From contig CAYUJZ010000001.1 of the NCBI GenBank assembly GCA_964445165.1, forward strand, positions 1,591-65,590: a DNA stretch of 64,000 bases, given 5' to 3'. The position numbers and the translations under genes were made by a program. Under the pieces are notes generated by a model. It worked only from the letters and a program-made list of their open reading frames with translations. It was not told the origin of the DNA and ran no database searches. The DNA comes from an uncultured Methanosarcinales archaeon. GTDB lineage: Archaea > Nanobdellota > Nanobdellia > Woesearchaeales > JASKKU01. Below, piece after piece: positions 25,716 to 43,679 of this stretch (position 1 is the first letter of the stretch; the number at the start of each line of letters is the position of its first letter).

Positions 25716-25782
25716 AAAACAGGATTTATAAGCTTTTTGTTAGGTTTACCGGGGTTTCTCAAAGAAGGCTGCTTCTTTCCGA

Positions 25783-27372
25783 TTAGCCAGGAATTCTAAG
25801 GATTATGAACTCCGGGCTTTCATTATAAACAAGCTCAAAGGAGATGTTAAGGCTAGCCAGCTCATCTCTAACATCAAAATCCGCCCTCTCTGCAAACACA
25901 ATCAGGGTTTCCCCAGCTTCAGGCCTGTAATCTTCAAAAGAAATAGTATGGTCAAACCGTTTTATACATCTTTCATCAGAATAGAAAGCCATTAGATTAT
26001 CAGAAAGCATATCGGAAAACGGGATATTATAAAGAGTGAATCTTGCTGAACCAATATCAGCCACGCTCTCTAGGTAAGAGCAGTTTGCAGCCTTGCTAAT
26101 AAAATCCAGGCCATGGCTTTTTTGCGTACTTACATGCCCATAAATCGAAGGGTATGCATAAAAGCCGAAAAACAAGCTTGCTCCTGCCAAAAATACCAAA
26201 AGTGAAATGAATGCCATCTTTATCAAGGATTTTCTTTTGATAAGCTCAATCGAGCCTGATTCAAAAAAGCATGCGAGCAGAACAAAAAAGAAGAACAAAA
26301 GATAGGAAAAAAAATATTTCTGATTTACAAAAGTGGATGTTTCAAAAGATGAAAACAGAATAAGGAAAAAGAAGGGAAGCAGTGCCCACCATTTCTTAAA
26401 ATAAAACACATAAAAAGCTGTGAAGACAGAAAAACCAAGAAAGATAAAAAAAGACGGAAAATACGACAGCAAGCTCTCACTGACATTCATAAAGAAATAA
26501 TAAAGAGAGAAGCCGCGATTCACATTAAAGAACAGAACGTGATAGACAAATGGGGCAGCCAAAATAAAGAAAGCAGACAGGGCAACTGCAGAAAAAGCCT
26601 TATTCTTTTTAAGAAATTTATACGAGAAAACAAAAGGAATAAGAAAAAAAATCGCTCCGTGTTCAAACTTGATATATGCCATAGCAAGAAGAATTAGAAG
26701 AAAAAGCGAGACAAGAAAATAGCGTTTAGGCTTAGGCATAAAAAGCTTTCTATTTCCTTCGAGGCTGCAAAAAACAGGCACCAGCGCCACGATCAGGAAA
26801 AGAGAGAAAAATTCCGCAACTGAATATAGCGAACCATACAATGTTATTGGATTAAAGAAAATAAAGCACAATAATGCAAAAGAAGCAAGCCTGCTCAATT
26901 TTGTAGTCTTTAAGAGAAAGTAAAGCAAAATCCCGGCAGAAACAAAAACCAGGGGATTTAACAGGCTGATTTTTCTGGCGAAGCCAGAAAAAAGAGAAAA
27001 AAGGTACAGCACAAAAGAGTAACCCATAGGGTGAGATGGGTGAACAAAAGGGAGCAGAATCATTTTTTCAGAGAAGGGAATCTCAGGGTCCCGCATTATA
27101 TCAACATGATTCAGATATGTCCAAACTTGGGCGTCATGCCCAAAAAACGGCTCGTGCCTGAAAGAGAAAGCAGAATACAAAAAAACAAAGGCAATAATGA
27201 AAGCTACCAAGAAAAATGCGTCTTTCCAGCCAAGCTTAATTCCACTAAGGTGCTTTAAAAAAAAATAAAGCAAAAAACAGAAAAGCAAAGAGAATATAAT
27301 TATTACAAAAGGATACTCGAGCCTGCCCAATGCTGATAAGCCCGGTTCAAGAAAAGACAGGAACATAGGCAC
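25783..27372 (-). CDS. polytopic membrane protein, GT-C-like glycosyltransferase candidate
   Basis: 529 aa, more than 12 TM helices, FFGHDAQ in the first loop. Confidence 0.45.
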   Translation of the reverse strand: MPMFLSFLEPGLSALGRLEYPFVIIIFSLLFCFLLYFFLKHLSGIKLGWKDAFFLVAFIIAFVFLYSAFSFRHEPFFGHDAQVWTYLNHVDIMRDPEIPFSEKMILLPFVHPSHPMGYSFVLYLFSLFSGFARKISLLNPLVFVSAGILLYFLLKTTKLSRLASFALLCFIFFNPITLYGSLYSVAEFFSLFLIVALVPVFCSLEGNRKLFMPKPKRYFLVSLFLLILLAMAYIKFEHGAIFFLIPFVFSYKFLKKNKAFSAVALSAFFILAAPFVYHVLFFNVNRGFSLYYFFMNVSESLLSYFPSFFIFLGFSVFTAFYVFYFKKWWALLPFFFLILFSSFETSTFVNQKYFFSYLLFFFFVLLACFFESGSIELIKRKSLIKMAFISLLVFLAGASLFFGFYAYPSIYGHVSTQKSHGLDFISKAANCSYLESVADIGSARFTLYNIPFSDMLSDNLMAFYSDERCIKRFDHTISFEDYRPEAGETLIVFAERADFDVRDELASLNISFELVYNESPEFIILRIPG

Positions 27373-27413
27373 AAGTAAACCGGTTTTATTATAAATTTTT
27401 CTTTTTAATAAAA

Positions 27414-28409
27414 TTACTTAGATACGCCAGGATTTACCTTTGAGAAAGCTATGTTTTTCTTAACCCTGTTATAAAGGTCTTCTGAAAGTGGGTTAAAGTG
27501 ATAATCTTTATTATTCAGCAAATGCTCTCTCAGAATACCACCGCAAATACCATCTTTTTTCAGAAAGCACTTTTCACATTGCCAAAGATATTCCTGATTC
27601 CTGTAGTCTTTTACAATATCCTTTATTCTTTTGTTAATCTCATCATCTGAAAGGTTGTAAAGGTAGAAAACATTAAAAAATCTTATCGAATTAAACCCAA
27701 GAAGATCTTCTTCAGAGAAAATGCACAGGGGAACATATTCGATTCTTATATCTTCAGCATCTAACCTGCTAATCTTAAGGACGGCCCTTCTGATATCAGA
27801 AAAAGAAACCAAAAAATCCTGAAACCTTATGTTCTTATTATCGTTATGAAGATAAGGCATTGTGAGCCGCCAGGGATATATCCCAAACTCTTTCCTGCAG
27901 AAAACAAACATATCATAAAAGTTCTCGATGTTCTGCTTAAGAAAAACAGAAGTCAGCCTAATTTCAATGCCCGAATCCAGCTCAAGAAGATTCTTAATTC
28001 CCTTGACAACCTGATTAAAGGCGCCCGGATTTCCAACTGCAGCATCGTGGTATTTTGCTTCTGAGCCATAAATAGGTATAAAAACCCTCGAGATGCCGGT
28101 CTTAGCAAACCTGCTGGCAAAACTCTTGTCAGCAAGCCTGTTTCCCGGGTCAAGAAGACTTATATCATCAAAACTTTTAGATAACCAGGAAAGAAATTCT
28201 ATGATTTTAGAGTATTTCAAAGGCTCAGAGCCAGAAACATCAATCCTTTTAAATCCGTTTTTTCTGAAGTAAAGCGCATCTTTGAGAAGCTTCTTCTCTT
28301 CTTCAAGGCCTAGGTCGTCGTTATGTAAACTCTTGTCCGGCTTACAAAACACGCAGTTATTAGAGCAACGCGGATTGATGAGAATGCTCCCAAACTTGTC
28401 TTCTTTCAT
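27414..28409 (-). CDS. short radical SAM enzyme, twitch-like C-terminus (family member 5)
   Basis: CSNNCVFC, SGSEPL, C-terminal CEKCFLKKDGIC. Confidence 0.8.
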   Translation of the reverse strand: MKEDKFGSILINPRCSNNCVFCKPDKSLHNDDLGLEEEKKLLKDALYFRKNGFKRIDVSGSEPLKYSKIIEFLSWLSKSFDDISLLDPGNRLADKSFASRFAKTGISRVFIPIYGSEAKYHDAAVGNPGAFNQVVKGIKNLLELDSGIEIRLTSVFLKQNIENFYDMFVFCRKEFGIYPWRLTMPYLHNDNKNIRFQDFLVSFSDIRRAVLKISRLDAEDIRIEYVPLCIFSEEDLLGFNSIRFFNVFYLYNLSDDEINKRIKDIVKDYRNQEYLWQCEKCFLKKDGICGGILREHLLNNKDYHFNPLSEDLYNRVKKNIAFSKVNPGVSK

Positions 28410-28497
28410 AAAAAAAGAAAAAAGTCTTTTCGTTTAAAAATATTTGCCTTGCCCTTAAATAGGCAATATTTTTAAATCCGGCAACCTCACTATTTAT

Positions 28498-29439
28498 ATG
28501 CAAAAAGAGTACTGCATCCTGAAAATAAACAACAAGTGCAACTACATATGCAACTTTTGTGCCGACTCTCTCAAGATTAAGGCTGAGGAGGAAATAGAAT
28601 TAAATGAAATTCTTTCCATAATTAAAAAAGAAAAAGATGAGGGTGCAATCAAGCTTCTTATAACAGGAGGGGAGCCAACCATATCCCCGCACCTTTTACC
28701 TGCTATTAAGAAAGGAAAAGAGCTTGGCTTTGAGAGCATTAGCCTAACAACAAATGGAAGAAAGCTTTCAGAAGATGATTTTTTCGCAGATGTTAACAGC
28801 TATATTGATGTTTACCTTATATCATTTTTCTCGGCTGACCCTTACACTTTTGACACTATCGCCGGAGTAAAAGGAGCTTTCTCAGATGTGAGTAAGGCTC
28901 TTCTTAAGATTTCAAGAGAGAAAAAAAAGAAACTTTGCATTAATTGTGTCATCTCAAGAATGAATTATAGAGAACTCAACAACATTGTTGTATATCTTGC
29001 ATCACTTGAAGCCTCTTTAATACAGTTCAGCTTTGCTAATATTGTTGGGTTTTTTAGAGATAATTTCGATAATCTTTTTGTTGATTACAATGAAATCTTG
29101 CCCTATGCTGTGAAAGCAATCCGGCTCTCTGAATACCTTAATTATAAAGGGCTTAGTTTTGAGAATTTTCCAATATGCCTTTTTTCAGGACACCTGCCTC
29201 TAAAAAAGGTTATGCCTAGGATATCTGACTTACACCATCCTGCAGGAAACAAAAAATACTATTCAAGCGGCAAGATGCATACACAAAAATGCAGGGAATG
29301 CTTCTTTCTAAACAGGTGCGAGGGCATTTACGAAGAGTACTATAGAAGAAGAGGAGACGGTGTGCTGACATCAATAAAAAAAGAAGATTTTGAAGACGAA
29401 AAAAAAGCAAATAAAAAAGAAAAAGTTAAAAATCATTAA
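28498..29439 (+). CDS. short radical SAM enzyme, twitch-like C-terminus (family member 6)
   Basis: CNYICNFC, TGGEPT, C-terminal CRECFFLNRC. Confidence 0.8.
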   Translation: MQKEYCILKINNKCNYICNFCADSLKIKAEEEIELNEILSIIKKEKDEGAIKLLITGGEPTISPHLLPAIKKGKELGFESISLTTNGRKLSEDDFFADVNSYIDVYLISFFSADPYTFDTIAGVKGAFSDVSKALLKISREKKKKLCINCVISRMNYRELNNIVVYLASLEASLIQFSFANIVGFFRDNFDNLFVDYNEILPYAVKAIRLSEYLNYKGLSFENFPICLFSGHLPLKKVMPRISDLHHPAGNKKYYSSGKMHTQKCRECFFLNRCEGIYEEYYRRRGDGVLTSIKKEDFEDEKKANKKEKVKNH

Positions 29440-29461: not shown

Positions 29462-29986
29462 TTATTTTGCTGCTCCTGCTTCTGGAGAATTATCAGGTGG
29501 CGCTTCTGCGGGCTTCCCTGGCTTGCTTTCCTGCCCTGGCTTTTTCTTAGGCTTTGCCTGAGCCAGCTCCACATCCCCGCCTGCTGCCTTGACCTTGGCT
29601 ATTGCCTTTTCTGTTGCAAATGCGACTTTAACCTTAAATGCCGCAGCAACCATGCCTTTTCCAAGGAGCTTCTGGTAGCCTTTCTCAGCTAAGTCAACAG
29701 GAATGCTCTGGCCTTTCTTAGGTTCAATGCCTGAAGAAAGCGCGAGAGCCTCAAGCTGGAAGACATTTATCGCTTTGTACTTGTTCTGCTTTGGGGGCCT
29801 GAACTTCCTGCTTGAGAAGTATTTTTTGTCCTTCCAGATGCTTGGCTTTTTCTGGTCTGCCTTCTTGCCTGTGCCTGCCATGCCTCTGCCGCCCCTGTGA
29901 CCGGCTCTCCTGCCGTACCTGTGGCCTGAGCCGCTCCACCTATTGCCTCTCTGCCTTCCTGCTTTTTTTCTCTTGTTGACAACCAT
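29462..29986 (-). CDS. rpl15: ribosomal protein L15 (uL15) with a K/A/P-rich C-terminal tail
   Basis: N-terminal RKKAGRQRGNRWSGSGHRYGRRAGHRGGRGMAGTGKK is typical of uL15; it sits last in the cluster. Confidence 0.85.
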   Translation of the reverse strand: MVVNKRKKAGRQRGNRWSGSGHRYGRRAGHRGGRGMAGTGKKADQKKPSIWKDKKYFSSRKFRPPKQNKYKAINVFQLEALALSSGIEPKKGQSIPVDLAEKGYQKLLGKGMVAAAFKVKVAFATEKAIAKVKAAGGDVELAQAKPKKKPGQESKPGKPAEAPPDNSPEAGAAK

Positions 29987-30361
29987 CTAAACCATCCTCT
30001 TGACCAGCTCGTTCATCTTGTCTTTCCTGTAGCCAAGGGCTCCGCCCCTGCTGAACGGCTTCTTGACTCCTTTTCTCTCAAATCCCTTTACCGGCGGGGA
30101 AAGGAAAAACACGCTGCTCTTGCTTCCTGAGCCGGCATTCCTGTCTTTTCTCTTTTCTGAGAGAAGCTTAAAGGTCTCTTCGCTGATCTCGCCAAAAGTC
30201 GCGTAATCCTTAACCCTTTCGAGCATTCCCATCACAGAAGGAGTCTTCTCAAAAACGGAGCATGCCATCTTCTTCCTAAGGTTTAGCTTATCCAAGGTAT
30301 CCTTTATCCTGATATCTGCCCCTATCCTTGACCTGATTAAAACAACTGCTATTCTTTCCAT
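29987..30361 (-). CDS. rpl30: ribosomal protein L30 (uL30/L7Ae-unrelated L7e type)
   Basis: MERIAVVLIRSRIGADIRIKDTL... The ORF-track start at 30445 is probably too far upstream, and I prefer the internal Met at 30361. Confidence 0.8.
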   Translation of the reverse strand: MERIAVVLIRSRIGADIRIKDTLDKLNLRKKMACSVFEKTPSVMGMLERVKDYATFGEISEETFKLLSEKRKDRNAGSGSKSSVFFLSPPVKGFERKGVKKPFSRGGALGYRKDKMNELVKRMV

Positions 30362-30362
30362 T

Positions 30363-31571
30363 TTACTCAGCCTTCGCTGCTTCTTCTGCCTGCCCTGCTT
30401 CTTCAAGCTCGGGCTGCTCGGGCTTTTCTTTTGGCACCGAGCCATCTATTATGCCGAGCGAACTGACATAAGCATAATCATTAACCTTGATTGCAGAGAG
30501 CTGGTAAAGCGCTTTCTCAACTGCCTTAACAAGGTTAAACTTGTTCCTGGCAAGGCCAGATGCATTAACCCAGATGTCTTTTATCCCGGCCTTATCGAGT
30601 ATTTTCTTCACCTCTTTCTCTGCAACAATTCCATTGCCTTTTGGCGCTGGCAGAAGCGTTACCTCTACAGAGCTGCTCTTTCCGTACACCTTAAACGGAA
30701 TCGAGTGGGGCTCCTTGCAGCCGCATTCCCATGAGCCGCAGCCCCTCTTAATTTTAATAACATTAACCTTGGCCTGCTTTGTTGCCTTTTCCCTTGCAGG
30801 CACTGTATCTTTTGACTTGCCGAATCCTATGCCGACATGGCCGTCGCTGTCACCTACAACCGCAACCGTGGCAAACCTCGGCTTGTTTCCTTCAGCAGTC
30901 TTTTTCTGTGTCTGCTTGAAAACCCTTCTCTTTCCGCCACCGAACTTTCCCTTTGCCTGCCCTGTAAGCAGAAGCTCAGAATCCAGCTCCGGCAGCAGGA
31001 TTTCCACTATCTCAGGTTCAAGGATTCTCAGGCCTTTTGAAAGGATATCATCAAGATTGGTTATCTCCTTGCTCTTTACCTTTTTCCCAAGGGTTGTCCT
31101 GGGTGTCCAGTCATCAAAAGAAGCAAGCCTGTCCCGTGGCTTGGCTTTTTCCGGCTTTGTCACTGTTTCTTCGTCTTCCTTAAATTCATCGAGGACTTCT
31201 TTTGGGAGCGGGCTTGCGTTTTCATCAGCATTGTCATCTGTCTCATCATCAGTTTTTTCTGCTGTCTCTTCCTCAGGCTCAGCTTTGTTTCCCTTTTTTT
31301 TCTTTTCTTCTTTTGCTTCTTCAGGCTTGGGCTCTGCCTCAGGCTTCTGTTCCGGCTTTTTCTCAGGCTCCGAGCCTTTTTCCTGCTTCTGCGCTTTGGG
31401 CTTGGCTGCCTTGTTTTCTTTTTCCACTTTCTTTGCCTTCTCCGCTTTCTCTTGCTTTTGAGCCTCTGCAGCTTTCTGCTGGGATTTCGGCTCTTCAGCA
31501 GCAACCGGTTCCTGCCCTGCTGCTGCCTCTGGCTGCTCCTTCTTGGCCTCTGCAGGCTTTTTTGCTAACAT
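30363..31571 (-). CDS. rps5: ribosomal protein S5 (uS5) with a ~190 aa K/E/A/P-rich N-terminal low-complexity extension and an acidic C-terminal tail
   Basis: The conserved core runs LASFDDWTPRT...GKFGGGKRRVF...VAVVGDSDGHVGIGFGKSKD...LLPAPKGNGIVA. Archaeal S5 is normally about 210-240 aa, and this one is 402 aa. Confidence 0.85.
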   Translation of the reverse strand: MLAKKPAEAKKEQPEAAAGQEPVAAEEPKSQQKAAEAQKQEKAEKAKKVEKENKAAKPKAQKQEKGSEPEKKPEQKPEAEPKPEEAKEEKKKKGNKAEPEEETAEKTDDETDDNADENASPLPKEVLDEFKEDEETVTKPEKAKPRDRLASFDDWTPRTTLGKKVKSKEITNLDDILSKGLRILEPEIVEILLPELDSELLLTGQAKGKFGGGKRRVFKQTQKKTAEGNKPRFATVAVVGDSDGHVGIGFGKSKDTVPAREKATKQAKVNVIKIKRGCGSWECGCKEPHSIPFKVYGKSSSVEVTLLPAPKGNGIVAEKEVKKILDKAGIKDIWVNASGLARNKFNLVKAVEKALYQLSAIKVNDYAYVSSLGIIDGSVPKEKPEQPELEEAGQAEEAAKAE

Positions 31572-32200
31572 TAAAGATCACCTTTTAAGATTGAGTTTTT
31601 GGCTTTTTCAAAGCCTTTTGTGATGTCTAAAGGGGAAATCTTCTTTGAAAGATATCCTGAGAACTGCTTTTTGTACTGCTCCGGGCTTTCCTTCTCGAGC
31701 TTCTGTGCATAGCTTTCTATGTGCTTTCCTGAAAGCCTGTCCTCAGGAGGGTAAACGCCTTCTCCGTGCGAAACTGAAAGCTCTGCATCAACCAGGCCTT
31801 TCAGAAACGCTGACTCAACAGAGCCCTTGAAGAATGGCCTAATGCCAAAGTCTAAAATGAACCCGTCCTTAAACTGGTTGAAGTCTTTTGCCTGCTTTAG
31901 CTTCTTTCCAAAAAACAAGCCGAAGAGATAGGCTGCTGGAATGCTGTTCTTCGAGTAATCCCAGCCAAGCTTAGGCAGGACTTTTGAGCTCATGCCATAA
32001 AGAACCTTATCTCCCTTTGCATCAAACCTTACTACCTGTGCACTAAGGCTCTTGCTTCCTCTCTTAAAAACAATCCTAGCTTTTCCTGACTTAAGGAGGT
32101 TTAGCCTCTTCCTGTAGTCAGTCTTGCCTTCCCTTTTCCTTCTAAACGGTAAAACTATTGCCATTTTAACCTTTCTTATCTGCTTTCTCTTTTTTTTCAA
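31571..32200 (-). CDS. rpl18: ribosomal protein L18 (uL18/L5e)
   Basis: RKREGKTDYRKRLNLLKSGKARIVFKRGSKSLSAQVV. Confidence 0.85.
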   Translation of the reverse strand: MKKKRKQIRKVKMAIVLPFRRKREGKTDYRKRLNLLKSGKARIVFKRGSKSLSAQVVRFDAKGDKVLYGMSSKVLPKLGWDYSKNSIPAAYLFGLFFGKKLKQAKDFNQFKDGFILDFGIRPFFKGSVESAFLKGLVDAELSVSHGEGVYPPEDRLSGKHIESYAQKLEKESPEQYKKQFSGYLSKKISPLDITKGFEKAKNSILKGDL

Positions 32201-32639
32201 AAAGCTCCTTCTCGGACATGAAGTACTTCAAGTGCCTCAGGCTCCTGAAAAACCCGCTTTTTGCCCTTCTGTACAGCTCTCGATAATTGCTATCTGAAAC
32301 AAGCTTTTTCAGCTTAACTTCTTTAAGGAACTGCCTTTGCTTCCTTATTTTTGACATCCAAGTTTCCTTCTTTGACTGCCTGGCGCCTGCTGTGCCTTTT
32401 CTAGAGCCATGGCCTTTCCTGTGGCCTTTTTTCTTTTTTTCCTGGAGCTCTTTTGACCTTGAATTTGAGATTCCCCTGGCCGGTAGCTTGATAATCGCTC
32501 CCTTATGAATAAGTATCTTGATGTCTTCTCTTGTGATTGCCTCTTTAATCTCATCCAGGGAAGCCTCATCCAGCGAAACCCTGCTCGGAGAGCACTTCAT
32601 AATGTCTGCCGCAATCCGTTTTTTGATTTTGAGATTCAT
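32166..32639 (-). CDS. rpl19e: ribosomal protein L19e (eL19)
   Basis: MNLKIKKRIAADIMKCSPSRV...KGHRKGHGSRKGTAGAR. Confidence 0.85.
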   Translation of the reverse strand: MNLKIKKRIAADIMKCSPSRVSLDEASLDEIKEAITREDIKILIHKGAIIKLPARGISNSRSKELQEKKKKGHRKGHGSRKGTAGARQSKKETWMSKIRKQRQFLKEVKLKKLVSDSNYRELYRRAKSGFFRSLRHLKYFMSEKELFEKKEKADKKG

Positions 32640-32659
32640 TTAAATCACATTACCTGCTT

Positions 32660-33316
32660 TTAGCTTCTTTTCGTAAGTATCTTTTCATACTCCCTTCTTT
32701 TCTGCTTTTCCTTCTCTTCCGGAGAGAGCTCTTTTTCCTTCTGCTTCCCTGCTTCTTTATCTTCTTTGCCGGCTTCTTTCTTTTCTTCTGGCTTCGCTGC
32801 CTTTGCCTCTTTTTCCTTCTTCTCTTTCTCCTTATCTTCTTTCTCTTTTTCTTCAACTATCTTTTCCATTGACTTCTTCTTTTTCTTTGCCTTTTCTTCC
32901 TTGGCTTTCTTCTTCCCGTAAATCTTTGACTTTGCTTCCTCAAGTGTTGCATTTACAACCAGAAGCCTGAGCTTCCTGGCTTCCTCAAGGATAGAAAGCC
33001 TTTTTCTGAGCCCAACTGTTGAGCCTATGAAAATACAATGCTTCTCCGGATTTAGCTTTGAAAGCTGTGCTGGGGACATAATAACAACAGGCAAAAGCCC
33101 TGATGGGTGATAGCCCTTAACCTCGCCTGGGCTGGAATAGCCAACCTGTGCCATCTTTGCATACCCCCTGAACTTCCTCCGGATTTTTGACTGGTGGCCT
33201 TTCGGCTTTCTCCACTTGCCCTGGTTTCTTACTCTCCGTTTTGAGCCCGGGAACTTGTAATCAGGCTTTTTCCCCTTTATTTTTTTCCTTAGCTCAAGGC
33301 TTTCTTTGATTCCCAT
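32660..33316 (-). CDS. rpl32e: ribosomal protein L32e (eL32) with a ~80 aa K/E-rich C-terminal extension
   Basis: KFPGSKRRVRNQGKWRKPKGHQSKIRRKFRGY...YSSPGEVKGYHPSGL. Confidence 0.85.
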   Translation of the reverse strand: MGIKESLELRKKIKGKKPDYKFPGSKRRVRNQGKWRKPKGHQSKIRRKFRGYAKMAQVGYSSPGEVKGYHPSGLLPVVIMSPAQLSKLNPEKHCIFIGSTVGLRKRLSILEEARKLRLLVVNATLEEAKSKIYGKKKAKEEKAKKKKKSMEKIVEEKEKEDKEKEKKEKEAKAAKPEEKKEAGKEDKEAGKQKEKELSPEEKEKQKRREYEKILTKRS

Positions 33317-33326
33317 GATTATCTCC

Positions 33327-33875
33327 TTATGATAGCTGCTTTCCGTTTTTTTCGATTATGTATATCCCGTCCTGGAAGACTCTCCTGTCCCTGTTCGAGA
33401 TTCTTGTGAGCTGCTCCAGCCTCGTGGCGCAGTTCCCCACTTTTTCAATGTCTATGCCTTTTACATCGATGATATCCCCGTTAAGCTTGACCTCAACATC
33501 CGAAGGCAGGGCAAGCTTTCTTGGGATGTTCTCTCCAAAAAGGTTTTTTACTGAAATCTCTCCTTTCTGAACAGACACCGAAACTGGAAAGTGGCTGTGG
33601 CATACCTTAAGCCTGTAAACAAAGCCTTCTGACACGCCTTTGAAAAGGTTTCTAATGTGCGCTGCATAGGTCAGCATCATCCTTTTTTCCCTTTTTGTAG
33701 CATTCTTCGCTGAGAGCAAAACTTTCTTTCCGTCTGACTCAATCTTAACCTTAGGATAGCTAAAGGCTTTCCTGGCTTCCCCAAGAGGGCCTTTTACTAA
33801 TATTGACTTGCCCTCTACTGACAGCTGGATGCCTTCAGGTATTTCTACTTCCTGTGCCAGGTTTTCTATTTTCAT
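33327..33875 (-). CDS. rpl6: ribosomal protein L6 (uL6)
   Basis: VEGKSILVKGPLGE...LTYAAHIRNLFKGVSEGFVYRLKVCHSHFP. Confidence 0.85.
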   Translation of the reverse strand: MKIENLAQEVEIPEGIQLSVEGKSILVKGPLGEARKAFSYPKVKIESDGKKVLLSAKNATKREKRMMLTYAAHIRNLFKGVSEGFVYRLKVCHSHFPVSVSVQKGEISVKNLFGENIPRKLALPSDVEVKLNGDIIDVKGIDIEKVGNCATRLEQLTRISNRDRRVFQDGIYIIEKNGKQLS

Positions 33876-33894
33876 TTTGGTTTGTTTAAAGCAG

Positions 33895-34290
33895 TCAGTA
33901 GCAGTAAGCTATCAGCCTTCCTCCGGTGTTCTTTTCCAGTGCCTCCTTGTGTGTCATAATGCCCTGGGGTGTTGAAACAACAATGATTCCAAAGCCATGC
34001 GCAGGAAGGTATCTTTTCTCAACATTCGTGTAGTCTGTGCTTCTGACAGATATTCTTGGCCTGATGGATGCGCACTTGTTAATGTGCCCGAGCAGGCTCA
34101 CTCTTATATGCCTGCCTTTAGAGGTCTGCTCGATGCCAAAGCCTCCAATGTACTTGTTATCCTGGAGGAGCTCAAGTACCTTAAGCAGCATGTTTGAAAC
34201 ATACTGAATCTCACACTCTTTCTTGTTTTCTTTCTCGTATGTGTACAATTTTGATAATGCGTTTGAAACTAAGTCTGTCATCATTAACAC
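33895..34290 (-). CDS. rps8: ribosomal protein S8 (uS8)
   Basis: TDLVSNALSKLYTYEKENKKECEI...GFGIIVVSTPQGIMTHKEA. Confidence 0.85.
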   Translation of the reverse strand: MLMMTDLVSNALSKLYTYEKENKKECEIQYVSNMLLKVLELLQDNKYIGGFGIEQTSKGRHIRVSLLGHINKCASIRPRISVRSTDYTNVEKRYLPAHGFGIIVVSTPQGIMTHKEALEKNTGGRLIAYCY

Positions 34291-34292
34291 CT

Positions 34293-34535
34293 TTATGAGT
34301 ATTTTTTGAACCCCAGCTCTGTGGCTATATCCCTAAAGCACTGCCTGCACAGGTGAAGCCCGTATTTCTGTATGTGTGCGCCATGCCTTCCGCAGTTCGC
34401 GCACTTGTATTTTGTCTTTCCGCAGCTCCTATCCTGCTTCTTGCCGTGCTTAAGAAACTTGTTAAGCTTTGCCGGCTTTGGCTTAAGCTGCTCTGCCCCT
34501 TTTCTATAGTCTGTTGCGGTCATTCTGTCAGGCAC
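34293..34535 (-). CDS. rps14: ribosomal protein S14 (uS14, Zn-binding type) with an N-terminal extension
   Basis: C-terminal [25 protein letters not shown]. Confidence 0.8.
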
Positions 34536-34536
34536 C

Positions 34537-35136
34537 TCACGATATTATGCTCGCTCCAAGCTCTTTCTTTGCGAATTCCATTGCATCCTGCTTTGAGATT
34601 GCAACCTTACTCCTGATTGGCTTCTTCAGAAGCTTTCTTCTTCTCAGCCTGAACCCGTCTCTCCTAAGGGTTACTGCTGCCTCAAACCCGAAGATTCCTA
34701 GCTTTGGGTCATATTTCAGTTCAGGAACATCAATGTACTCAGGTATGCCAAAGGAGAAGTTTCCTGCATCATCAAAGCACGACTCTTTCAAAGACAGGTT
34801 AACTGCTGCCAAGAGCCTCTTGAGAACCTCCTTTGCCTTTGGTCCTCTTAAAGTTACCTTAACTCCCAACGGGAGGCCCGGCCTTATGTCCCAGGTCGGA
34901 ATCCTTTTTGTTGTAAAGGTTTTTACTGGCTTCATTCCTGTTAGCCTTTCAAGCAGCACCAGGCCTGCATCAAGCCTGGCTGCATCCCTTCCTGCGCCAA
35001 TATTAAGCGTTACCTTCTCTATCTTCACAGCCCTGTGCGGGTTCTGGGATTTTGGCTTAGCTTTGCCCTTAGCCTTTGGCTCTTTGGCTTCCGGCTTCTT
35101 GCCTTTTGCTTCCTTCTGGACTGCTTCAGCTGCCAT
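34537..35136 (-). CDS. rpl5: ribosomal protein L5 (uL5) with a K-rich N-terminal extension
   Basis: [25 protein letters not shown]...[28 protein letters not shown]. Confidence 0.85.
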
Positions 35137-35836
35137 TTGAATCCCTCCGTATTGTTAATGCTGGCTCTTTTTTTCCAACTACAAGCAAGCTTTTAACCTC
35201 GACTTCTTTTGAATAGTCACCTATTTTAACAACAGCTTTCTTGCCTGATACTGAATCCACTATGCCAAGCTCAGCTATGTGGCTTCCTGAAGCAAAAAAC
35301 ACAACACTGCCCTTGTCAAGCTTAAAGGTTTCCAATATTTTGTTTTCCTTGAAGTCCAGCACAGCACTGTCTCCTGTTGAAATTTCCAGCTTTCCATCAT
35401 GAAGAAGGTTTGTGCCGTCACTAAAGTTAAGATGCACTTTCCCTGCCTTAAGTGTGGATTTAGATATAAGCTTGACAATCTTTTTGGTGCTTTCCTTTTC
35501 AGTTATAGGAATGCTGCCTAAGTAGCCTCCTTTGGTAAGAACTACCCTGAAATGCTGCTTTGCTTCAGGGATGGATATAACATCAAAGAGAGAAACAGGA
35601 ACCTTGTGGCTTTTTGGGGCTTTCTGGTTAACAAGCACCTTGTTATTGCGTATAAGGTAGCTTACCTCGCTTGTTGTAGAGCAGATGCCAAGCTTTTCCT
35701 TAAGCCAGGTCGAAAGCGGCATGCCAAGCCTTAGGCTGCCCCTACCCGGAAGCGGCCTTGCAATAAACACTGACGACTTCCTTGTGATTTTCCATGTCCT
35801 GGGCGCTGCCACCCTTTTAAGATGATACTTTACCAT
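35126..35836 (-). CDS. rps4e: ribosomal protein S4e (eS4)
   Basis: MVKYHLKRVAAPRTWKITRKSSVFIARPLPG. Confidence 0.85.
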   Translation of the reverse strand: MVKYHLKRVAAPRTWKITRKSSVFIARPLPGRGSLRLGMPLSTWLKEKLGICSTTSEVSYLIRNNKVLVNQKAPKSHKVPVSLFDVISIPEAKQHFRVVLTKGGYLGSIPITEKESTKKIVKLISKSTLKAGKVHLNFSDGTNLLHDGKLEISTGDSAVLDFKENKILETFKLDKGSVVFFASGSHIAELGIVDSVSGKKAVVKIGDYSKEVEVKSLLVVGKKEPALTIRRDSNGS

Positions 35837-36305
35837 TTGAACCTACCTTTTCTTTTTCTTCCTTGCCCTTTTTTTCCTTGAGCTCTTCTGCTTTAGGCTT
35901 TTCTGCCTTTTTCTTTGCCTTTGCCGGCTTTTCCGGCTTAATGTTCTTTAGCCTTCTCGGGTCTTTGAGATTCAGCTCCACAACCTGAAGGCTTGAAGCC
36001 CTGAACGGGATTGCAGCCTTGCTTCCGTCCTTCTTTTTTGTTTCGAAGCCTTCAATATAAACCACAGAAGCTTTTGTGTCCACGCGGGAAATCTTTCCTT
36101 GCTTGCCCTTGCCTGTGCCGCGCATAACCTTTACTTTGTCTCCTGTTGACGCCCTTACGCTCCTTGTTTTGTACTTGTCTCTTAGCTCTTTTGATAGATG
36201 CGAATTTAAAAAGCCCTGCTTAATATGAAGCGGAGCATTGAAGAGGTACTTCCTCTGCTTCCTTGGCTTTGTGCTTGACACCCATTTTTTTGAAAAAACC
36301 TTCAT
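35817..36305 (-). CDS. rpl24: ribosomal protein L24 (uL24) with a K/E-rich C-terminal tail
   Basis: MKVFSKKWVSSTKPRKQRKYLFNAPLHIKQ...GDKVKVMRGTGKGKQGKISRVD. The ORF-track start at 36365 is probably wrong, and I prefer the internal ATG at 36305. Confidence 0.8.
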   Translation of the reverse strand: MKVFSKKWVSSTKPRKQRKYLFNAPLHIKQGFLNSHLSKELRDKYKTRSVRASTGDKVKVMRGTGKGKQGKISRVDTKASVVYIEGFETKKKDGSKAAIPFRASSLQVVELNLKDPRRLKNIKPEKPAKAKKKAEKPKAEELKEKKGKEEKEKVGSNGKVSS

Positions 36306-36316
36306 CACAATCACTC

Positions 36317-36718
36317 TCAGTAAATTATCGACGCCAGCCTTGCTATTGCAGGCCACCTGTCGCATGCCTCTTTTGCAACCGGGCCTTTGATAACCGTGCC
36401 TTTGAGGTTTCCAAGCTCATCCTTGATTACAACAGCTGAATTGTCTTCAAACTTAACCCTTAGCCCGGATGGCCTTCTGTACTCTTTTTTCTGCCTTATT
36501 AAAACAGCCTCAATCACCTTTTTTCTCATTTCGGGATTGCCTTTGATTACGCTGGCAAGTATTATATCGCCTACTCCTGCTGCCTGAAGCCTTCCTTTTG
36601 TTGTGCCGATTTTCTTTACCGAGATTATCTTGATAATCTTGGCTCCCGAATTGTCAGCTACATTAAGGAATGCGCCCAATGGCAGCCCTCTTGTTACGCT
36701 TGATGATATGCCTTTCAT
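36317..36718 (-). CDS. rpl14: ribosomal protein L14 (uL14)
   Basis: LPLGAFLNVADNSGAKIIKIISVKK. Confidence 0.85.
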   Translation of the reverse strand: MKGISSSVTRGLPLGAFLNVADNSGAKIIKIISVKKIGTTKGRLQAAGVGDIILASVIKGNPEMRKKVIEAVLIRQKKEYRRPSGLRVKFEDNSAVVIKDELGNLKGTVIKGPVAKEACDRWPAIARLASIIY

Positions 36719-37056
36719 GACAAGTCCTCTTTTTTCTTTACAATCTCAAGCACCACAAAGCTTTTGGTTTTGCTTAATGGCCTTGTCTCTCCTATTTTGA
36801 CAAAATCCCCAACTTTAGCACTTATGCAGAGGGGATTGTGAGCCTTGTATGTTGTGAACCTTTTTGAGTACCTGTTATATTTTGGAAAATAGTAAAGCCT
36901 CTCCTTTTTCACAGTAACGGTCTTTGTCATCTTGTCTGAAGTAACAAGGCCTTCAAAAGCCCTTCCTCTTGTCTTAAGGTGCCCATGCACAGGGCATAGT
37001 GGGTCTTTGCACTCACTTTGTGCTTCCTTTGGCTTTTCTGTGGTTTTTTTTGCCAT
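36715..37056 (-). CDS. rps17: ribosomal protein S17 (uS17)
   Basis: CKDPLCPVHGHLKTRGRAFEGLVTSDKMTKTVTV. Confidence 0.8.
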   Translation of the reverse strand: MAKKTTEKPKEAQSECKDPLCPVHGHLKTRGRAFEGLVTSDKMTKTVTVKKERLYYFPKYNRYSKRFTTYKAHNPLCISAKVGDFVKIGETRPLSKTKSFVVLEIVKKKEDLS

Positions 37057-37309
37057 TTTTTATGCGACCTTTTTTGTTTGTTCTTGAATACAACTTACCT
37101 TGAAGGGCATTCCCATTGATTATAAAAAGGTTTCCCTTTTTTTCTACCCTGAAAATCCTGTTTTTCTTCAGGATAACCTTGAATTTTTTTCCTTCCCGCA
37201 GCACCAAGGAATTCTTAAGGTCAAGCACTGGTTTTCCGCTTATCCCTTTTTCAAGCGGGTTCGGTGATTCCAGCACCTCGATTCTGCAGCCTATCAGGAA
37301 CATTTTCAA
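37013..37309 (-). CDS. rnp1: RNase P protein component 1 (Rpp29/Pop4 homologue)
   Basis: LIGCRIEVLESPNPLEKGISGKPVLDLKNSLVL; sits at the conserved archaeal position between L29/SUI1 and S17. Confidence 0.7.
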   Translation of the reverse strand: MKMFLIGCRIEVLESPNPLEKGISGKPVLDLKNSLVLREGKKFKVILKKNRIFRVEKKGNLFIINGNALQGKLYSRTNKKGRIKNGKKNHRKAKGSTK

Positions 37310-37338
37310 CCTCGCAATCTTTTCGGCAAGCCTTAGGC

Positions 37339-37647
37339 TTACCTTACCTTGATTGAGCTTGGCGGGAAGCCCTGCTCCATTAAGATGTCGTAAGCCTTTT
37401 TTACATGGTGGCCCTGAAGCTCAATTTCGTTTTTGCTAAAGGTTCCGCCACAAGCAAGCTTGTTTTTAAGCACCTTCGCCAGCTCCTTGACATCTATGTT
37501 GTCTGCCTCAATCCCTTTGATTACTGTGCAGATCTTTCCGAACCTCCTCTTTTCTGTGGAGATCCGAATCTCGAGGTTTTCCTTTGCTATTGTTCCGCAA
37601 ACGCAGAGCTCTTTTGGGAGCCCGCATGTCGTGCATATCTCACTCAT
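37339..37647 (-). CDS. translation initiation factor SUI1 (aIF1/eIF1 family)
   Basis: CTTCGLPKELCVCG...GKICTVIKGIE...LACGGTFSKNEIELQGHH. Confidence 0.8.
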   Translation of the reverse strand: MSEICTTCGLPKELCVCGTIAKENLEIRISTEKRRFGKICTVIKGIEADNIDVKELAKVLKNKLACGGTFSKNEIELQGHHVKKAYDILMEQGFPPSSIKVR

Positions 37648-37853
37648 TTGCTTTTTTGTTCAACTTTCGCATTAAGCAGGCTTTTTATCCTTGCTATATC
37701 TCTTTTTGAGTTCCTTATTTCTGATGCAACCTTCGAGTTTGTTGATGAGGCTCTCTGGTTATTAAGCTTAACCAGCTCCTGCCTGAGGCTGTTTAGTGCT
37801 TTCTTAAGCTCATCCACACTCATGTCATCAAACTTTCTTGAGCGCTTGCTCAT
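37644..37853 (-). CDS. rpl29: ribosomal protein L29 (uL29)
   Basis: MSVDELKKALNSLRQELVKLNNQRASS. Confidence 0.8.
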   Translation of the reverse strand: MSKRSRKFDDMSVDELKKALNSLRQELVKLNNQRASSTNSKVASEIRNSKRDIARIKSLLNAKVEQKSK

Positions 37854-38467
37854 TTCGCTTCACCTTCTGCTTTCTGCTTAATGGAAACATCATCTGGGAG
37901 AGTTACTCCTGGCGGCAATATTTTAACAACAACCCCTACAGAGCCTGCCTTAAGGCTTGCAACGCTGATGTTTTTTCGCACCAGTGTCTGTGCCGGGTTG
38001 CCGCACTTCTTCAGGTATCCTTTTGAAACTCTCCAGGTTCTTGCCCTTGCACCAGGGATCTTGCCTGACAGGACTACTTCAACCCCGCGGGCGCCGGCTC
38101 TCATAATCTTATCAATGGTTTTATGCATTGCTGACTTGAACCCGTTTGGGCCGAACCTTTGCAGGGAAACAACAATTCCTTCTGCCATAATCTTTGCATC
38201 AAGGAACGGGTTTTCTACTTCCAGCACTTCGATTTCGGGGTTTTCCAGCCCGAACTTTTCCTTAAGCTCATCTGAAAGGGAGATTATGTTTCTTCCCTTT
38301 CTTCCAACAACGAGGCCGGGCATTGAAGATGAGATTATTACTTTTTCTCCAAGCGGAGTCCTCTTAACTTCTACTAATGATATCCCAGCATTAGGGAATT
38401 TTTTGAATATGTATGCTCTTATGCTGAACAGGTTTACATTATTTTTGATAAAGGTACGCTCAATCAT
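37850..38467 (-). CDS. rps3: ribosomal protein S3 (uS3)
   Basis: KH domain GLVVGRKGRNIISLSDELKEKFG; GARGVEVVLSGKIPGARAR. Confidence 0.85.
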   Translation of the reverse strand: MIERTFIKNNVNLFSIRAYIFKKFPNAGISLVEVKRTPLGEKVIISSSMPGLVVGRKGRNIISLSDELKEKFGLENPEIEVLEVENPFLDAKIMAEGIVVSLQRFGPNGFKSAMHKTIDKIMRAGARGVEVVLSGKIPGARARTWRVSKGYLKKCGNPAQTLVRKNISVASLKAGSVGVVVKILPPGVTLPDDVSIKQKAEGEAK

Positions 38468-39210
38468 TTTTGATCGCCTCTCCTGGCTTTATTATCATAA
38501 TCTTGCTTTGATTCTTTTTGCTCTTTTTCAGAAGGCTCTTCTGGCTTACCCGCGGGTTTCTGCCCAGGCTGCTTCTTCTGTTCTTTTTTTTGTTCTGGCT
38601 CGAGCTTCTTTTCTTCTTTTTTCTCTGGCTTAGCTCTTGGCTTTGGCTTTTCCTGCTGCTTCTCTTCAACTTTGGTTTCTTTCTTTGCTGGCTTTGGCTC
38701 GGGCTTTTCTGCTGGTTTCTCCTGCTTCTTTGCTGCCTGCGGCCTTGGCTGCTTCTTTTCTTTTCTGCTTTTTGCACTGCCTTCCTTTTCTATCAGGATA
38801 ACCTGCAAGTGCGTGCTTTTCGCTGTCCTGCCTCTTTTTCTTCCGTATTTTGGCCTTGCGGTGCCCTTGTCTGCGCAGATCAGCTTGATTGCAAGGTCTT
38901 CCTTGCTTAGGCCTTTCAGGGATGCGTTTGCCTCAGCGTTCTTAAGCAGCTTAATGAAATAGCCTGCTGTTTTCTGGGGGTATCTTCCGGAAGCCATGTT
39001 TCTCTTATGCGCAACAGCATGGCCATACCTTTTGAAAGGCACTGCTATCTCTTTCTTAACCACGCCCTCAAGGAGAGCATATGCTCTTGTGAGCGGCTTA
39101 TTTTTGATAAACCGTGCTACCTCAACGCTCTGCTTAAGCGAGACCGGGATATTATCCATCCTTGCTCTTGCAAAGCTTTCCCCTTCCTTAACTTTTATTT
39201 TGTAATTCAT
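38464..39210 (-). CDS. rpl22: ribosomal protein L22 (uL22) with a ~100 aa K/E/P-rich C-terminal extension
   Basis: The conserved core covers about residues 1-150 (AVPFKRYGHAVAHKR...ADKGTARPKYGRKRGRTAKSTHL). The remainder is a KEKPEPK repeat-like tail. Confidence 0.85.
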   Translation of the reverse strand: MNYKIKVKEGESFARARMDNIPVSLKQSVEVARFIKNKPLTRAYALLEGVVKKEIAVPFKRYGHAVAHKRNMASGRYPQKTAGYFIKLLKNAEANASLKGLSKEDLAIKLICADKGTARPKYGRKRGRTAKSTHLQVILIEKEGSAKSRKEKKQPRPQAAKKQEKPAEKPEPKPAKKETKVEEKQQEKPKPRAKPEKKEEKKLEPEQKKEQKKQPGQKPAGKPEEPSEKEQKESKQDYDNKARRGDQK

Positions 39211-39227
39211 TTAAGTGCACCGTCCAA

Positions 39228-39611
39228 TCACTTGACTGAAGCGTGGGCTGTGGATTTTGTTGCCCCTATTCCTGGTGAATTGTGCTTCACCGGCTTTCTT
39301 GTTGGAACGAACTCCCCGAGCCTGTGGCCAAGCATCTCTGATGTTACCTGGATTGAAACAAACTCTTTTCCGTTGTAAATTGCGATTTTCTTGCCTACAA
39401 AAACAGGCAGCACAATCATATCCCTGCAATGGGTTTTTATGAAGTCCTTTTTCTTTGCCTTTTCTATAAGCTTTTTTTCCGGCTCAGTAAATCCCCTGTT
39501 AATTTTTCTCCTTTCCCTTGATGACAAGAGCTGGGAAAACTCCTTGATGCTCATTGAATTTATTTCGCTAAGCTCCTTTCCCCTGAATTGAATTTCTTTT
39601 GCCATGTTCAA
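39228..39611 (-). CDS. rps19: ribosomal protein S19 (uS19)
   Basis: GKKIAIYNGKEFVSIQVTSEMLGHRLGEFVPTRK. Confidence 0.85.
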   Translation of the reverse strand: MNMAKEIQFRGKELSEINSMSIKEFSQLLSSRERRKINRGFTEPEKKLIEKAKKKDFIKTHCRDMIVLPVFVGKKIAIYNGKEFVSIQVTSEMLGHRLGEFVPTRKPVKHNSPGIGATKSTAHASVK

Positions 39612-39615
39612 TCAC

Positions 39616-40329
39616 TCACTTTTTGCCTGTTCTCTTTGCAGCAATATAGCCGGCTTTTCTTCCTGGCGGCGCATGCCTGGAGACTGGCTTGGCTCTTGAC
39701 TTCCTCAGTGACCTCTTGTTCCCGAATGGATGGTCTACTGCATTCATTGCATTGCCTGAAACCTTTGGCCAGTTCTTATGCTTGTACTTTGCGAAAAAGC
39801 CTTTTGTTCCTGCCTTAAGGAATGGCTTGTCCACCCTTCCTGAGCCTGCAACAACGCCAATGGTTGCCCTGCAGCTAAGGCTGAAGGATTTCTCCTTTTT
39901 CGATGGAAGGAGCACGACTGCATGGGTTGGGTGCTTTGCCACAAGCTTTGCGCTTGAGCCGCCTGACCTGACGAACTTTCCGCCGTCTCCCGGCCTTCCT
40001 TCAAGATTAAAAAGGCTTGTCCCTTCCGGAACCTGCTTTAGCATAAGGACATTGCCCGGCTTAAGCTGGGCCGGGTCATAATATGAAACATTATCTCCTT
40101 CTGAAATGCCCTGAGCTGCAACATGTGCAAACTTCCTGCCGTTGTGGGCTATCTTAACTAAAGGTGCAGAGTGGGACCGGTCATCAAAGATTTCCTTTAT
40201 CCTGGCTGAAAAAGGCGCTGTCCCGTGCTCAAGGGGAATGTATTTTGCCTCTTCTTTTGCCCAGAATTTAGGGTACTTGTAGAGCGACGACCCTGAACCC
40301 CTCCTCTGAGCAATTATCCTTTTTCCCAT
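39616..40329 (-). CDS. rpl2: ribosomal protein L2 (uL2)
   Basis: GKRIIAQRRGSGSS...PGDGGKFVRSGGSSAKLV. Confidence 0.9.
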   Translation of the reverse strand: MGKRIIAQRRGSGSSLYKYPKFWAKEEAKYIPLEHGTAPFSARIKEIFDDRSHSAPLVKIAHNGRKFAHVAAQGISEGDNVSYYDPAQLKPGNVLMLKQVPEGTSLFNLEGRPGDGGKFVRSGGSSAKLVAKHPTHAVVLLPSKKEKSFSLSCRATIGVVAGSGRVDKPFLKAGTKGFFAKYKHKNWPKVSGNAMNAVDHPFGNKRSLRKSRAKPVSRHAPPGRKAGYIAAKRTGKK

Positions 40330-40345
40330 TTTGCCTCACCTGTGG

Positions 40346-40603
40346 TTATACCAGCCCCAGCTTTGTTGCTATGTCAAACGCCGGGGTCTCTTTTGAGATT
40401 GAAACAACAGCCCTCTTCTTGCCTTTTGGCGTTATCATTATTTTCACACCTTCAACCTTAACCTTAAAGGCACTCTCAACCTCTGCCCTGACATCTGTCC
40501 TTGAGGCATTGAAATCTACCTCAAAGGCTATCTTGTTCTCTGTCTCAAGCAGCTTGATGTACTTTTCCGAGTTTATTGGTTTTATGAGCACCATTTTTAT
40601 CAC
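40346..40603 (-). CDS. rpl23: ribosomal protein L23 (uL23)
   Basis: VLIKPINSEKYIKLLETENKIAFEVD...KVEGVKIMITPKGKKRA. Confidence 0.85.
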   Translation of the reverse strand: MIKMVLIKPINSEKYIKLLETENKIAFEVDFNASRTDVRAEVESAFKVKVEGVKIMITPKGKKRAVVSISKETPAFDIATKLGLV

Positions 40604-41409
40604 TTAAAAAGGCCTTTCTCTTCTATGGCCCTTACTGCTGATTCTGTAAAAAGCGTGAGCCTGCCAGGCACTCCGCCTGGTGCAAGCAGCTCTACGTTTA
40701 GCTTGTCAGCCGGGACAACATCCACGCCCGGGATGTTCCTGGCGCTTTTGCTAAGGCCTGCCTCTTTATTTGAAACAACCACGAGCAGGCTCTTTTTCCT
40801 GAGGTATCTTCTTCCCCGGGATTTTCCCTTGCCTGCCCTTTGGGTCTTTGCCTTAGCCCTTTTAATGTCAGCTGAAAAGCCGAGCTTCCCAAGGGCTTCT
40901 ATTGCTTTTTTTGTCTTATCTATTGACTCAAATTTCTCTGAAATTATAAAAGGGTAATTATCCGGGACTAAATGGCCCCGTGCCTCACTTAGGCTTTTAT
41001 CTAATACAGCTGAAAGCGCTGAGCGGAGTGCCTTTTTTCTCTCTTTTGTATTAAGGTGCTTTGCCCACTGTTTCTCTGATTTTGGGGGATGTGCCCTTCT
41101 TCCGCCGACTGTGCCAGGAACCTGGGCGCCAACCCAGTACATTCTTGTCCCTCTTCTTACAAGGATTTTTCTGGGGATTCTGGAGATGCCGAAGCCATAA
41201 GAGCCCCTGTAGTGCCTTCTCCTTCTTGAAAGGTCAGGTGCATATCTCTTGCCTGCCAGAGGGGTTGCCCCATATCTCTGCCTGCTGTTTGCCCTGATGG
41301 ACTCGAATGCCCTTTTAATCAGGTCAGCCCTGAATGGCTCCTGAAACTGTAAAGGCATCTCTATTTTGCCTGCTTCCTTGCAATCCAGGTCAAAAACGCT
41401 TATTTTCAT
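40600..41409 (-). CDS. rpl4: ribosomal protein L4 (uL4/L1e)
   Basis: 269 aa, in the position and with the composition typical of archaeal L4. Confidence 0.8.
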   Translation of the reverse strand: MKISVFDLDCKEAGKIEMPLQFQEPFRADLIKRAFESIRANSRQRYGATPLAGKRYAPDLSRRRRHYRGSYGFGISRIPRKILVRRGTRMYWVGAQVPGTVGGRRAHPPKSEKQWAKHLNTKERKKALRSALSAVLDKSLSEARGHLVPDNYPFIISEKFESIDKTKKAIEALGKLGFSADIKRAKAKTQRAGKGKSRGRRYLRKKSLLVVVSNKEAGLSKSARNIPGVDVVPADKLNVELLAPGGVPGRLTLFTESAVRAIEEKGLFK

Positions 41410-41422
41410 CTTCTAAACCTTC

Positions 41423-42637: not shown

Positions 42638-42710
42638 GGGGCTGTGGGGTAGCTTGGTAGCCTCCTACCTTGGGGTGGTAGTGACCCGGATTCAAATTCC
42701 GGCAGCCCCA
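42638..42710 (+). tRNA. tRNA-Pro (anticodon GGG), no encoded CCA
   Basis: I hand-folded the cloverleaf. Acceptor GGGGCTG/CAGCCCC, anticodon stem CTACC/GGTAG with loop TTGGGGT (U33, G37), T-arm CCGGA-TTCAAAT-TCCGG, discriminator A. Confidence 0.75.
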
Positions 42711-43652: not shown

Positions 43653-43679
43653 GATAAGCGAAGCAGGTTCTGGCCTGTT

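Follow-up and report, generated by a model that had tools for sequence, protein, structure and literature searches.

The operon and its terminal extensions

We analysed a 64,000-nucleotide stretch of contig CAYUJZ010000001.1 (the window), in which an archaeal ribosomal protein operon occupies positions 29462-42406 of the minus strand and several of the encoded proteins carry long, low-complexity terminal extensions rich in lysine and glutamate. Open reading frames (ORFs) and Pfam matches give the gene order L3, L4, L23, L2, S19, L22, S3, L29, SUI1, Rpp29, S17, L14, L24, S4e, L5, S14, S8, L6, L32e, L19e, L18, S5, L30, and L15, which is the same in independent assemblies. The complete set of ribosomal proteins expected for the operon is present, and their conserved cores are intact, the latter as a preliminary description of this DNA had stated; no ribosomal RNA (rRNA) gene lies within the 64 kb. 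For uS5 and eL32 the nearest database relatives with a name bear the labels Candidatus Woesearchaeota, Nanoarchaeota, or Nanoarchaeia; on these protein matches, the source genome is that of a Woesearchaeota-type DPANN archaeon.

We set the limits of the extensions by alignment to solved archaeal ribosome chains in the Protein Data Bank (PDB) and by Pfam cores; coordinates within the operon are on the minus strand unless another strand is given. The long extensions reported in the preliminary description were found where they had been placed, with several lengths corrected and some of the named proteins lacking a tail. The largest belongs to uS5 (402 residues), whose long N-terminal tract had been put at ~190 residues because it was counted to the Pfam domain and not to the archaeal-conserved N-terminal region; residues 5-13 of solved archaeal uS5 align at query residue ~150, giving an N-extension of ~149 residues. 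It consists of a distal part (residues 1-118; 31218-31571), a hypervariable K/E/A/P/Q polyampholyte that is predicted to be disordered and is absent from PDB uS5 chains, and a proximal part (residues 119-149, SPLPKEVLDEFKEDEE to KPEKAKPRDRLASFDD; 31125-31217), a conserved linker to the core that is ungapped and 68% identical to that of a congener (L088). The same protein has an internal 15-residue Gly/Lys insert, GQAKGKFGGGKRRVF (residues 204-218; 30918-30962), which faces a gap in the PDB uS5 chains shown, is unchanged across 28 Woesearchaeota uS5 sequences, and is modelled by AlphaFold2 (AF2) as a low-confidence loop (predicted local distance difference test, pLDDT, <50 at residues 206-213). 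As it is basic and conserved, unlike the tails, this insert is a better candidate RNA contact than they are, judged by sequence. At the other end of uS5, PDB alignment delimits an acidic C-tail of ~25 residues (378-402; 30366-30440; net charge -5), which has an in-frame 8-residue deletion in L088 and overlaps the long L30 ORF, the real start of L30 being Met29.

The C-tail of uL22 (248 residues), claimed at ~100 residues, measures 105 (residues 144-248; 38467-38781); it is K/E/P/Q-rich, solved archaeal chains of 150-156 residues align only to query residues 131-141, and its stop codon overlaps the S3 start. eL32 (218 residues) has the C-terminal low-complexity tail described for it, at 92 rather than ~80 residues (127-218; 32663-32938), its core ending near residue 126; the tail is made up of a long predicted helix, a low-confidence linker, and a conserved, predicted terminal helix (...EYEKILTKRS). 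The shorter extensions named on uL24, uL15, and uL5 are also present. That of uL24 is a 35-residue C-tail (35820-35924), PDB alignments stopping at ~residue 123-127 of a 162-residue protein whose gene proper is 35817-36305, with its real start at Met21 of a 182-residue ORF. uL15 (174 residues) has an A/P/K-rich C-tail of 32 residues (29465-29560), the Thermococcus kodakarensis protein ending at query residue 142, and uL5 (199 residues) has 30 N-terminal residues ahead of the conserved core (35047-35136), 14-30 of them beyond reference archaea. uS14 (76 residues), also named there, has an extension of ~20 residues at its N terminus, with ordinary rather than low-complexity composition (34458-34523; PDB chains of 50-56 residues align from query residues 26-33), and this extension occurs lineage-wide. 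Tails attributed to two further proteins were not recovered: eL19 has none of note (157 residues versus ~150 in references), and uL18, 197 residues from its real start, has no low-complexity tail. uS3 (37850-38467; 205 residues) has no C-tail in the window or in L088.

These tracts are concentrated in ribosomal proteins. Six of the seven 30-residue segments of the whole 64 kb with at least 80% K/E/A/P/Q/D fall in the operon, and such composition extends over at least 30 residues in uS5, uL22, eL32, uL24, uL15, and uL5. Tract carriers make up 5/16 ribosomal proteins of the window versus 1/46 other ORFs (Fisher p = 0.003). Across the related loci, from a comparison set of ~80 species-level relatives recovered from GTDB genomes, the counts are 167/1128 (14.8%) versus 18/695 (2.6%; odds ratio 6.5, p = 1e-19). 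We therefore rejected a proteome-wide K/E bias, the other ORFs of the window and of 80 loci seldom carrying tracts; Nop5, fibrillarin, SRP54, Kae1, and GyrB of the window have none. The sole non-ribosomal low-complexity tract of the window, acidic and E/P-rich (48280-48378), lies inside a 1289-residue ORF (44923-48792, minus strand) that has no Pfam match.

Reading frames and occurrence in relatives

The extensions are genuine coding parts of their genes. The same operon is present in at least four independently assembled samples, 99.93-100% identical, ungapped, and with equal called gene lengths, and four gap-free matching assemblies rule out a frameshift or assembly error. Five nearly identical assemblies of this population were available, and its source samples include JGI 3300037528, ENA ERZ27252303 and ERZ27252306, and SRR10872671. 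The start codon of uS5 shares bases with the stop codon of L18 (TAATG), and the protein is without any internal Met. In 74/81 species no stop interrupts the uS5 frame between the core and the end of L18, and in 67/81 an ATG lies at -10 to +30 nt of the L18 stop, while the distance from that stop to the core ranges from 17 to 398 nt; a later uS5 start at an internal GTG was rejected on this conservation. For the C-tails, the frame spans at least 80% of the inter-core space in 41/44 species for uL22, 22/22 for uS3, 73/76 for eL32, and 32/33 for uS17, when shuffled spacers predict only 1.9, 0.3, 1.3, and 4.0 species, respectively. In comparison with L088, conserved terminal residues come after variable stretches of tail with in-frame insertions and deletions (indels), and the frame is therefore maintained.

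One related contig (L001) has an apparently truncated uS5 of 273 residues, without the first 120, at a synteny break (around 9980-9993) that falls inside the low-complexity uS5 extension. Upstream of the break it has no homology to the window, and from position 9987 onward it is 99.97% identical to L088, in which the operon is intact and uS5 has 393 residues. L001 is probably a chimeric or rearranged contig with an assembly break in low-complexity DNA, and, since it belongs to the same population as the intact L088, we rejected the view that it proves the extension dispensable.

ORFs in other frames of the minus strand (31160-31504, 38460-38777, and 32650-32856) and on the plus strand (30541-31461 and 37881-38633) overlap the tail-coding DNA. 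The coding strand is T-poor and purine-rich, with an AT skew down to -0.35 over 30-42 kb; these ORFs are a by-product of that bias and are not to be called genes.

The tails are a hallmark of Woesearchaeota-type DPANN archaea and not peculiar to one genome. The eL32 tail is found in 75/75 species (47-102 residues, median 68). Tails of at least 20 residues occur on uL22 in 72% of 61 related species (maximum 156 residues) and on uS3, where they are K/E-rich C-tails with a median of 48 residues, in 89%; the corresponding shares are 50% for uS17, 27% for uL15, 25% for uL4, and 12% for uL24. N-extensions in relatives have medians of 39 residues in uS5 (maximum 134), 22 in uS14, and 6 in uL5, the 149 residues of the window's uS5 being the longest among the relatives and the best 120 database matches. 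Summed over eight sites, the extensions amount to a median of 252 residues (range 112-620), and the window, at 438, is high but not unique.

Total tail length is not driven by GC content (rho -0.12, p = 0.38). A species-level factor that lengthens all tails jointly was also rejected, correlations between sites being weak and mixed (-0.31 to +0.55). uS5 adjoins uS3 at the mRNA entry site, and the extension lengths of these two proteins are uncorrelated across species (rho -0.12).

Extensions of this kind have precedents. In a survey of 102 archaeal proteomes and other prokaryotes, low-complexity regions were found to be frequent in ribosomal proteins and to consist mostly of A/E/K, with S3, S24, L10, and L12 named for archaea (Ntountoumi et al. 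2019, PMC6821194). Those regions share with the tails described here a terminal position, dominance of A/E/K, and recurrence in orthologues of many genera, archaeal uS3 included; ours likewise lie outside the conserved domain, have an A/E/K-type bias, and recur in ~80 species-level genomes. They differ in that the survey tracts are mostly alanine/glutamate, the survey describes neither tails of eL32, uL22, and uS5 nor their concentration in one lineage nor tracts of 100-150 residues on several proteins of one operon. Eukaryotes extend the same termini of uS5 (N), uL22, and uL24 (C): in solved eukaryotic chains the uS5 core begins at ~residue 28-55, uL22 has ~184 residues versus 150-155 in archaea, and uL24 ~145 versus 121. 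The window tails are 2-4 times longer than the eukaryotic extensions, hypervariable, and compositionally simple, and phmmer aligns eukaryotic uL22 and uL24 ~15-25 residues into the tails through low-complexity sequence, a match that may reflect composition alone.

Single archaeal proteins with extensions are known as well. Methanosarcina acetivorans uS3 (318 residues) has one C-terminal extension, at a terminus that is also a hot spot in Woesearchaeota although uS3 of the window is tail-less, and Haloarcula marismortui eL32 (240 residues) has ~100 extra residues too, but N-terminal, the chain aligning from its residue ~122. The eL32 tail of the window is C-terminal with a net charge of +11, unlike the acidic N-extensions of the halophile type. 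Both cases are isolated within their organisms, versus a set of 6-8 tailed proteins here. The tracts are unusual against model archaea with solved ribosomes, as had been supposed from the sequence at the outset. Searches of the literature for ribosomal protein extensions in Woesearchaeota or DPANN returned no description of the tail set or of an eL32 arm. Ribosomal low-complexity regions and single archaeal extensions are accordingly known in kind; the Woesearchaeota tail set and the predicted eL32 arm appear to be new.

Conservation, composition, and proposed roles

The distal tails diverge fast in sequence. Between the window and L088 the cores are 78-90% identical and ungapped, versus 24-39% identity and many in-frame indels in the distal uS5, uL22, uL15, and uL5 extensions (29% in distal uS5 versus 90% in its core; 24% in the uL15 tail versus 89%). 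Better conserved are the eL32 (66%) and uL24 (64%) tails and the proximal part of the uS5 extension. Lengths in the window and L088, respectively, are 118 and 117 residues for the distal uS5 extension, 105 and 133 for uL22, 32 and 41 for uL15, 30 and 31 for uL5, 35 and 36 for uL24, and 92 and 84 for eL32. At a four-fold-site divergence of 0.79 per site and with ~69 one-step paths to a stop codon per long tail, ~18 nonsense hits would be expected neutrally per long tail (P of none ~1e-8, under an equal-rates model and approximate in size). None was fixed, and the lengths are therefore retained by selection against truncation. The sequence comparison suggests, beyond this, that selection keeps the presence, approximate length, and charge character of the tails and not their sequence.

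In composition the tails are mixed rather than basic. They are 34-68% charged, with a net charge per residue of -0.05 (uS5) to +0.20, an acidic content of 12-28%, and an R/(K+R) ratio of 0-0.14. The rRNA-buried arms of the operon's proteins that we compared (uL15 N-arm, uL3 N terminus, uL4 loop, uL2 C terminus, eL19 basic region, and eL32 N terminus) are arginine/glycine-rich, with +0.23 to +0.40 net charge per residue, 0-7% acidic residues, and R/(K+R) of 0.35-0.86; the uL15 N-arm, the sole arm compared with L088, is identical at 48/53 positions. Charge blocks and charge patterning of the single-alpha-helix type are mostly as in shuffled sequences, the exceptions being the uL22 pair score (z = -2.5) and charge segregation in uL15 (z = +2.1). 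AF2 predicts residues 1-145 of uS5 to be disordered (pLDDT 36-67), and proline plus glycine make up 6-10% of the tails other than that of eL32.

The preliminary description had offered the option that the tails are polycationic rRNA-binding arms, compensating for reduced rRNA expansion segments or for missing ribosomal proteins, and we weighed it for the setting of a reduced genome. The large-subunit tails are indeed net positive (uL22 +14 over 105 residues, eL32 +11 over 92, uL24 +6, uL5 +6, and uL15 +3; lineage means of +0.09 to +0.22 per residue for uL22, uL4, uL24, and eL32), the conserved eL32 tip could serve for docking, as could the ends of uL22 and uL24, which are conserved too, and nucleic acid binding has been proposed for lysine-rich low-complexity regions of ribosomal proteins (PMC6821194). 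In composition and in distal conservation the tails nevertheless differ from classical rRNA-penetrating arms, which are strongly basic, R/G-rich, and conserved like the core. The largest tract, that of uS5, has a net charge of -7, and the lineage means of uS5 and uS17 are slightly acidic; the remaining tails of the window reach only +0.09 to +0.20 per residue, with 12-28% acidic residues and almost no arginine, and their distal parts are unconserved between congeners. No expected ribosomal protein is missing from the operon. Polycationic arm is for these reasons a poor description, and we consider the proposal rather unlikely for the tails as a set; a compensating, rRNA-binding role is possible for the basic large-subunit tails.

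The eL32 tail stands apart from the disordered ones. It is alignable across the lineage: it starts amphipathic, continues K/E-rich, and closes with a motif, ..EKKEKDK[VIL]LTK.., that is present in 57-58/75 species. From 64 homologues AF2 models a helix over residues 125-182 (58 residues, ~87 Å or about 9 nm), with block-mean pLDDT of 94-98 to ~residue 170 and a drop to ~70 over 171-180, followed by a low-confidence linker and a second helix (residues 199-215) over the conserved tip. A fold search with this model matched only eL32 cores, and no solved eL32 aligns past the core. These predictions point to a structured element. A charged fraction of 0.68 in the tail of the window and 2% proline plus glycine in eL32 tails across the 75 species, together with the predicted isolated 58-residue helix, resemble ER/K single alpha-helix domains; a simple score of opposite-charge pairs shows no significant excess over shuffles (z = +0.5). 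The remaining tails are rich in proline, and disorder is predicted for them. In eukaryotes, the long C-terminal helices of eL19 and eL24 form the intersubunit bridges eB12 and eB13 (PMC9932298). The predicted eL32 tail would likewise be a long charged helix projecting from a large-subunit protein. The eukaryotic helices reach a distant site; the protein in the window is eL32, without a known bridge or docking site, and eL19 of the window is of the short archaeal form.

We lean toward sorting these genuine, translated extensions into two kinds, disordered polyampholyte tails at the ribosome surface, a location already suggested in the preliminary description as one option, and a structured eL32 arm. 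The first kind would comprise the uS5 N-, uL22 C-, uL15 C-, uL5 N-, and uL24 C-tails and, in relatives, also those of uS3, uS17, and uL4, with well-mixed K and E, about half of the residues charged, a net charge near zero to mildly positive, and almost no arginine. Such tails may act through bulk properties, forming on each ribosome a hydrated and charged brush of some 250-600 residues. Placed at solvent-side termini, this brush would hold ribosomes apart and in solution, and free basic ribosomal proteins likewise; large-subunit tails, being mildly basic, could in addition touch the rRNA surface weakly and without specificity. The second kind, by analogy with eL19 and eL24, would be the eL32 helix, acting as a rigid spacer whose tip docks at some distance, on rRNA or on a protein.

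A number of observations weigh against this reading, and some of them are what non-adaptive growth would produce, in which slippage-prone AAG/GAA-rich codons at solvent-exposed ends expand in small symbiont populations, where selection is weak, and the resulting tails are tolerated without function. The location of the tails on the ribosome surface, and their function, we infer rather than observe. In some Woesearchaeota the extra residues of uS5 number fewer than 15, and several tails are missing from part of the species (presence is patchy for uS3, uL24, uL5, and uL15), so that none of the disordered tails is essential by itself. The alanine/proline/glycine share of the tails climbs with genomic GC, as weakly constrained sequence would; hypervariable lengths and sequences and the weak, mixed correlations between sites fit non-adaptive growth too. 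The estimate of nonsense hits would shrink under a bias against changes to T. For eL32, the simple score of i/i+3 and i/i+4 opposite-charge pairs is not above shuffles, and AF2 often assigns high confidence to charged helices.

Non-adaptive growth is nonetheless unlikely in our view. It does not account for the strong enrichment in the most highly expressed proteins relative to other ORFs, for the congener lengths retained in the face of the expected nonsense hits, or for an eL32 tail that is universal, has a conserved motif, and is predicted to be helical. DNA tandem repeats are, moreover, only weak and short (Tandem Repeats Finder scores 30-52) with no clear repeat structure, and a tandem-repeat origin was rejected.

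We give little credence to a role of the tails as built-in chaperones that shield the basic cores of free ribosomal proteins and aid assembly where assembly factors are few. The tails are specific to ribosomal proteins, their mixed charge suits the solubilising of basic proteins, and the termini that bear them coincide with those extended in eukaryotes, in which dedicated chaperones bind some ribosomal protein extensions. A chaperone role leaves unexplained the strong variation between species in which proteins are tailed, and it overlaps with the bulk-property model that we favour, from which it is hard to separate. An annotation artefact, in which wrong starts or stops or frameshifts join the cores to spacers or adjacent ORFs (named in the preliminary description as what would overturn it), is practically excluded: the T-poor strand does open other frames, GTG codons in the uS5 extension could in principle act as later starts, and the uS5 of L001 is truncated, but the assemblies are identical, frames are continuous across ~80 species far beyond chance, start codons overlap upstream stops, conserved C-terminal residues come after the in-frame indels, and L001 shares its population with a genome whose uS5 is intact.

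Carried further, the reading of surface tails plus an eL32 arm leads to a more doubtful proposal: that a ~9-nm helical eL32 arm with a docking tip, maybe a new bridge, defines the lineage, that a corona of 250-600 tail residues is selectable, and that DPANN genome reduction went alongside an expansion of ribosomal proteins that independently mirrors eukaryotes. If this were true, the eL32 arm would be an element absent from any solved ribosome and might form an intra-ribosomal or inter-particle bridge. Ribosomal protein extension is usually seen as eukaryotic and tied to larger rRNA; here, a lineage with very small genomes and cells has enlarged its most abundant proteins by hundreds of residues that selection retains, which is costly and unexpected. 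The ~80 species, with very different tail lengths at the same sites, offer a natural experiment on solubility, spacing, assembly, or RNA contact, and the eL32 arm is a concrete structural prediction. For practical purposes, gene callers and phylogenomic pipelines should expect and trim such tails, and assemblers can break inside them, as in L001.

Neighbouring features of the window

Several features flank the operon. After L15, in place of secY, radical-SAM genes form a cluster that occupies both strands (23290-29439); L088 is likewise without secY at this position, and a more distant relative (L002) retains the usual L15-SecY order. Toward the right end of the window, Nop5 and fibrillarin adjoin the origin-associated OapB and OapC (61080-63421), and because of this neighbourhood a replication origin may lie near that end. 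Nop5 of the window (307 residues) is without the K/E/D-rich tail that eukaryotic Nop56/58 carry. Just upstream of the operon are tRNA-Pro(GGG) (42638-42710, plus strand) and tRNA-Arg(CCT) (43578-43653, minus strand), of which only tRNA-Arg(CCT) is recovered by Rfam at the gathering threshold.

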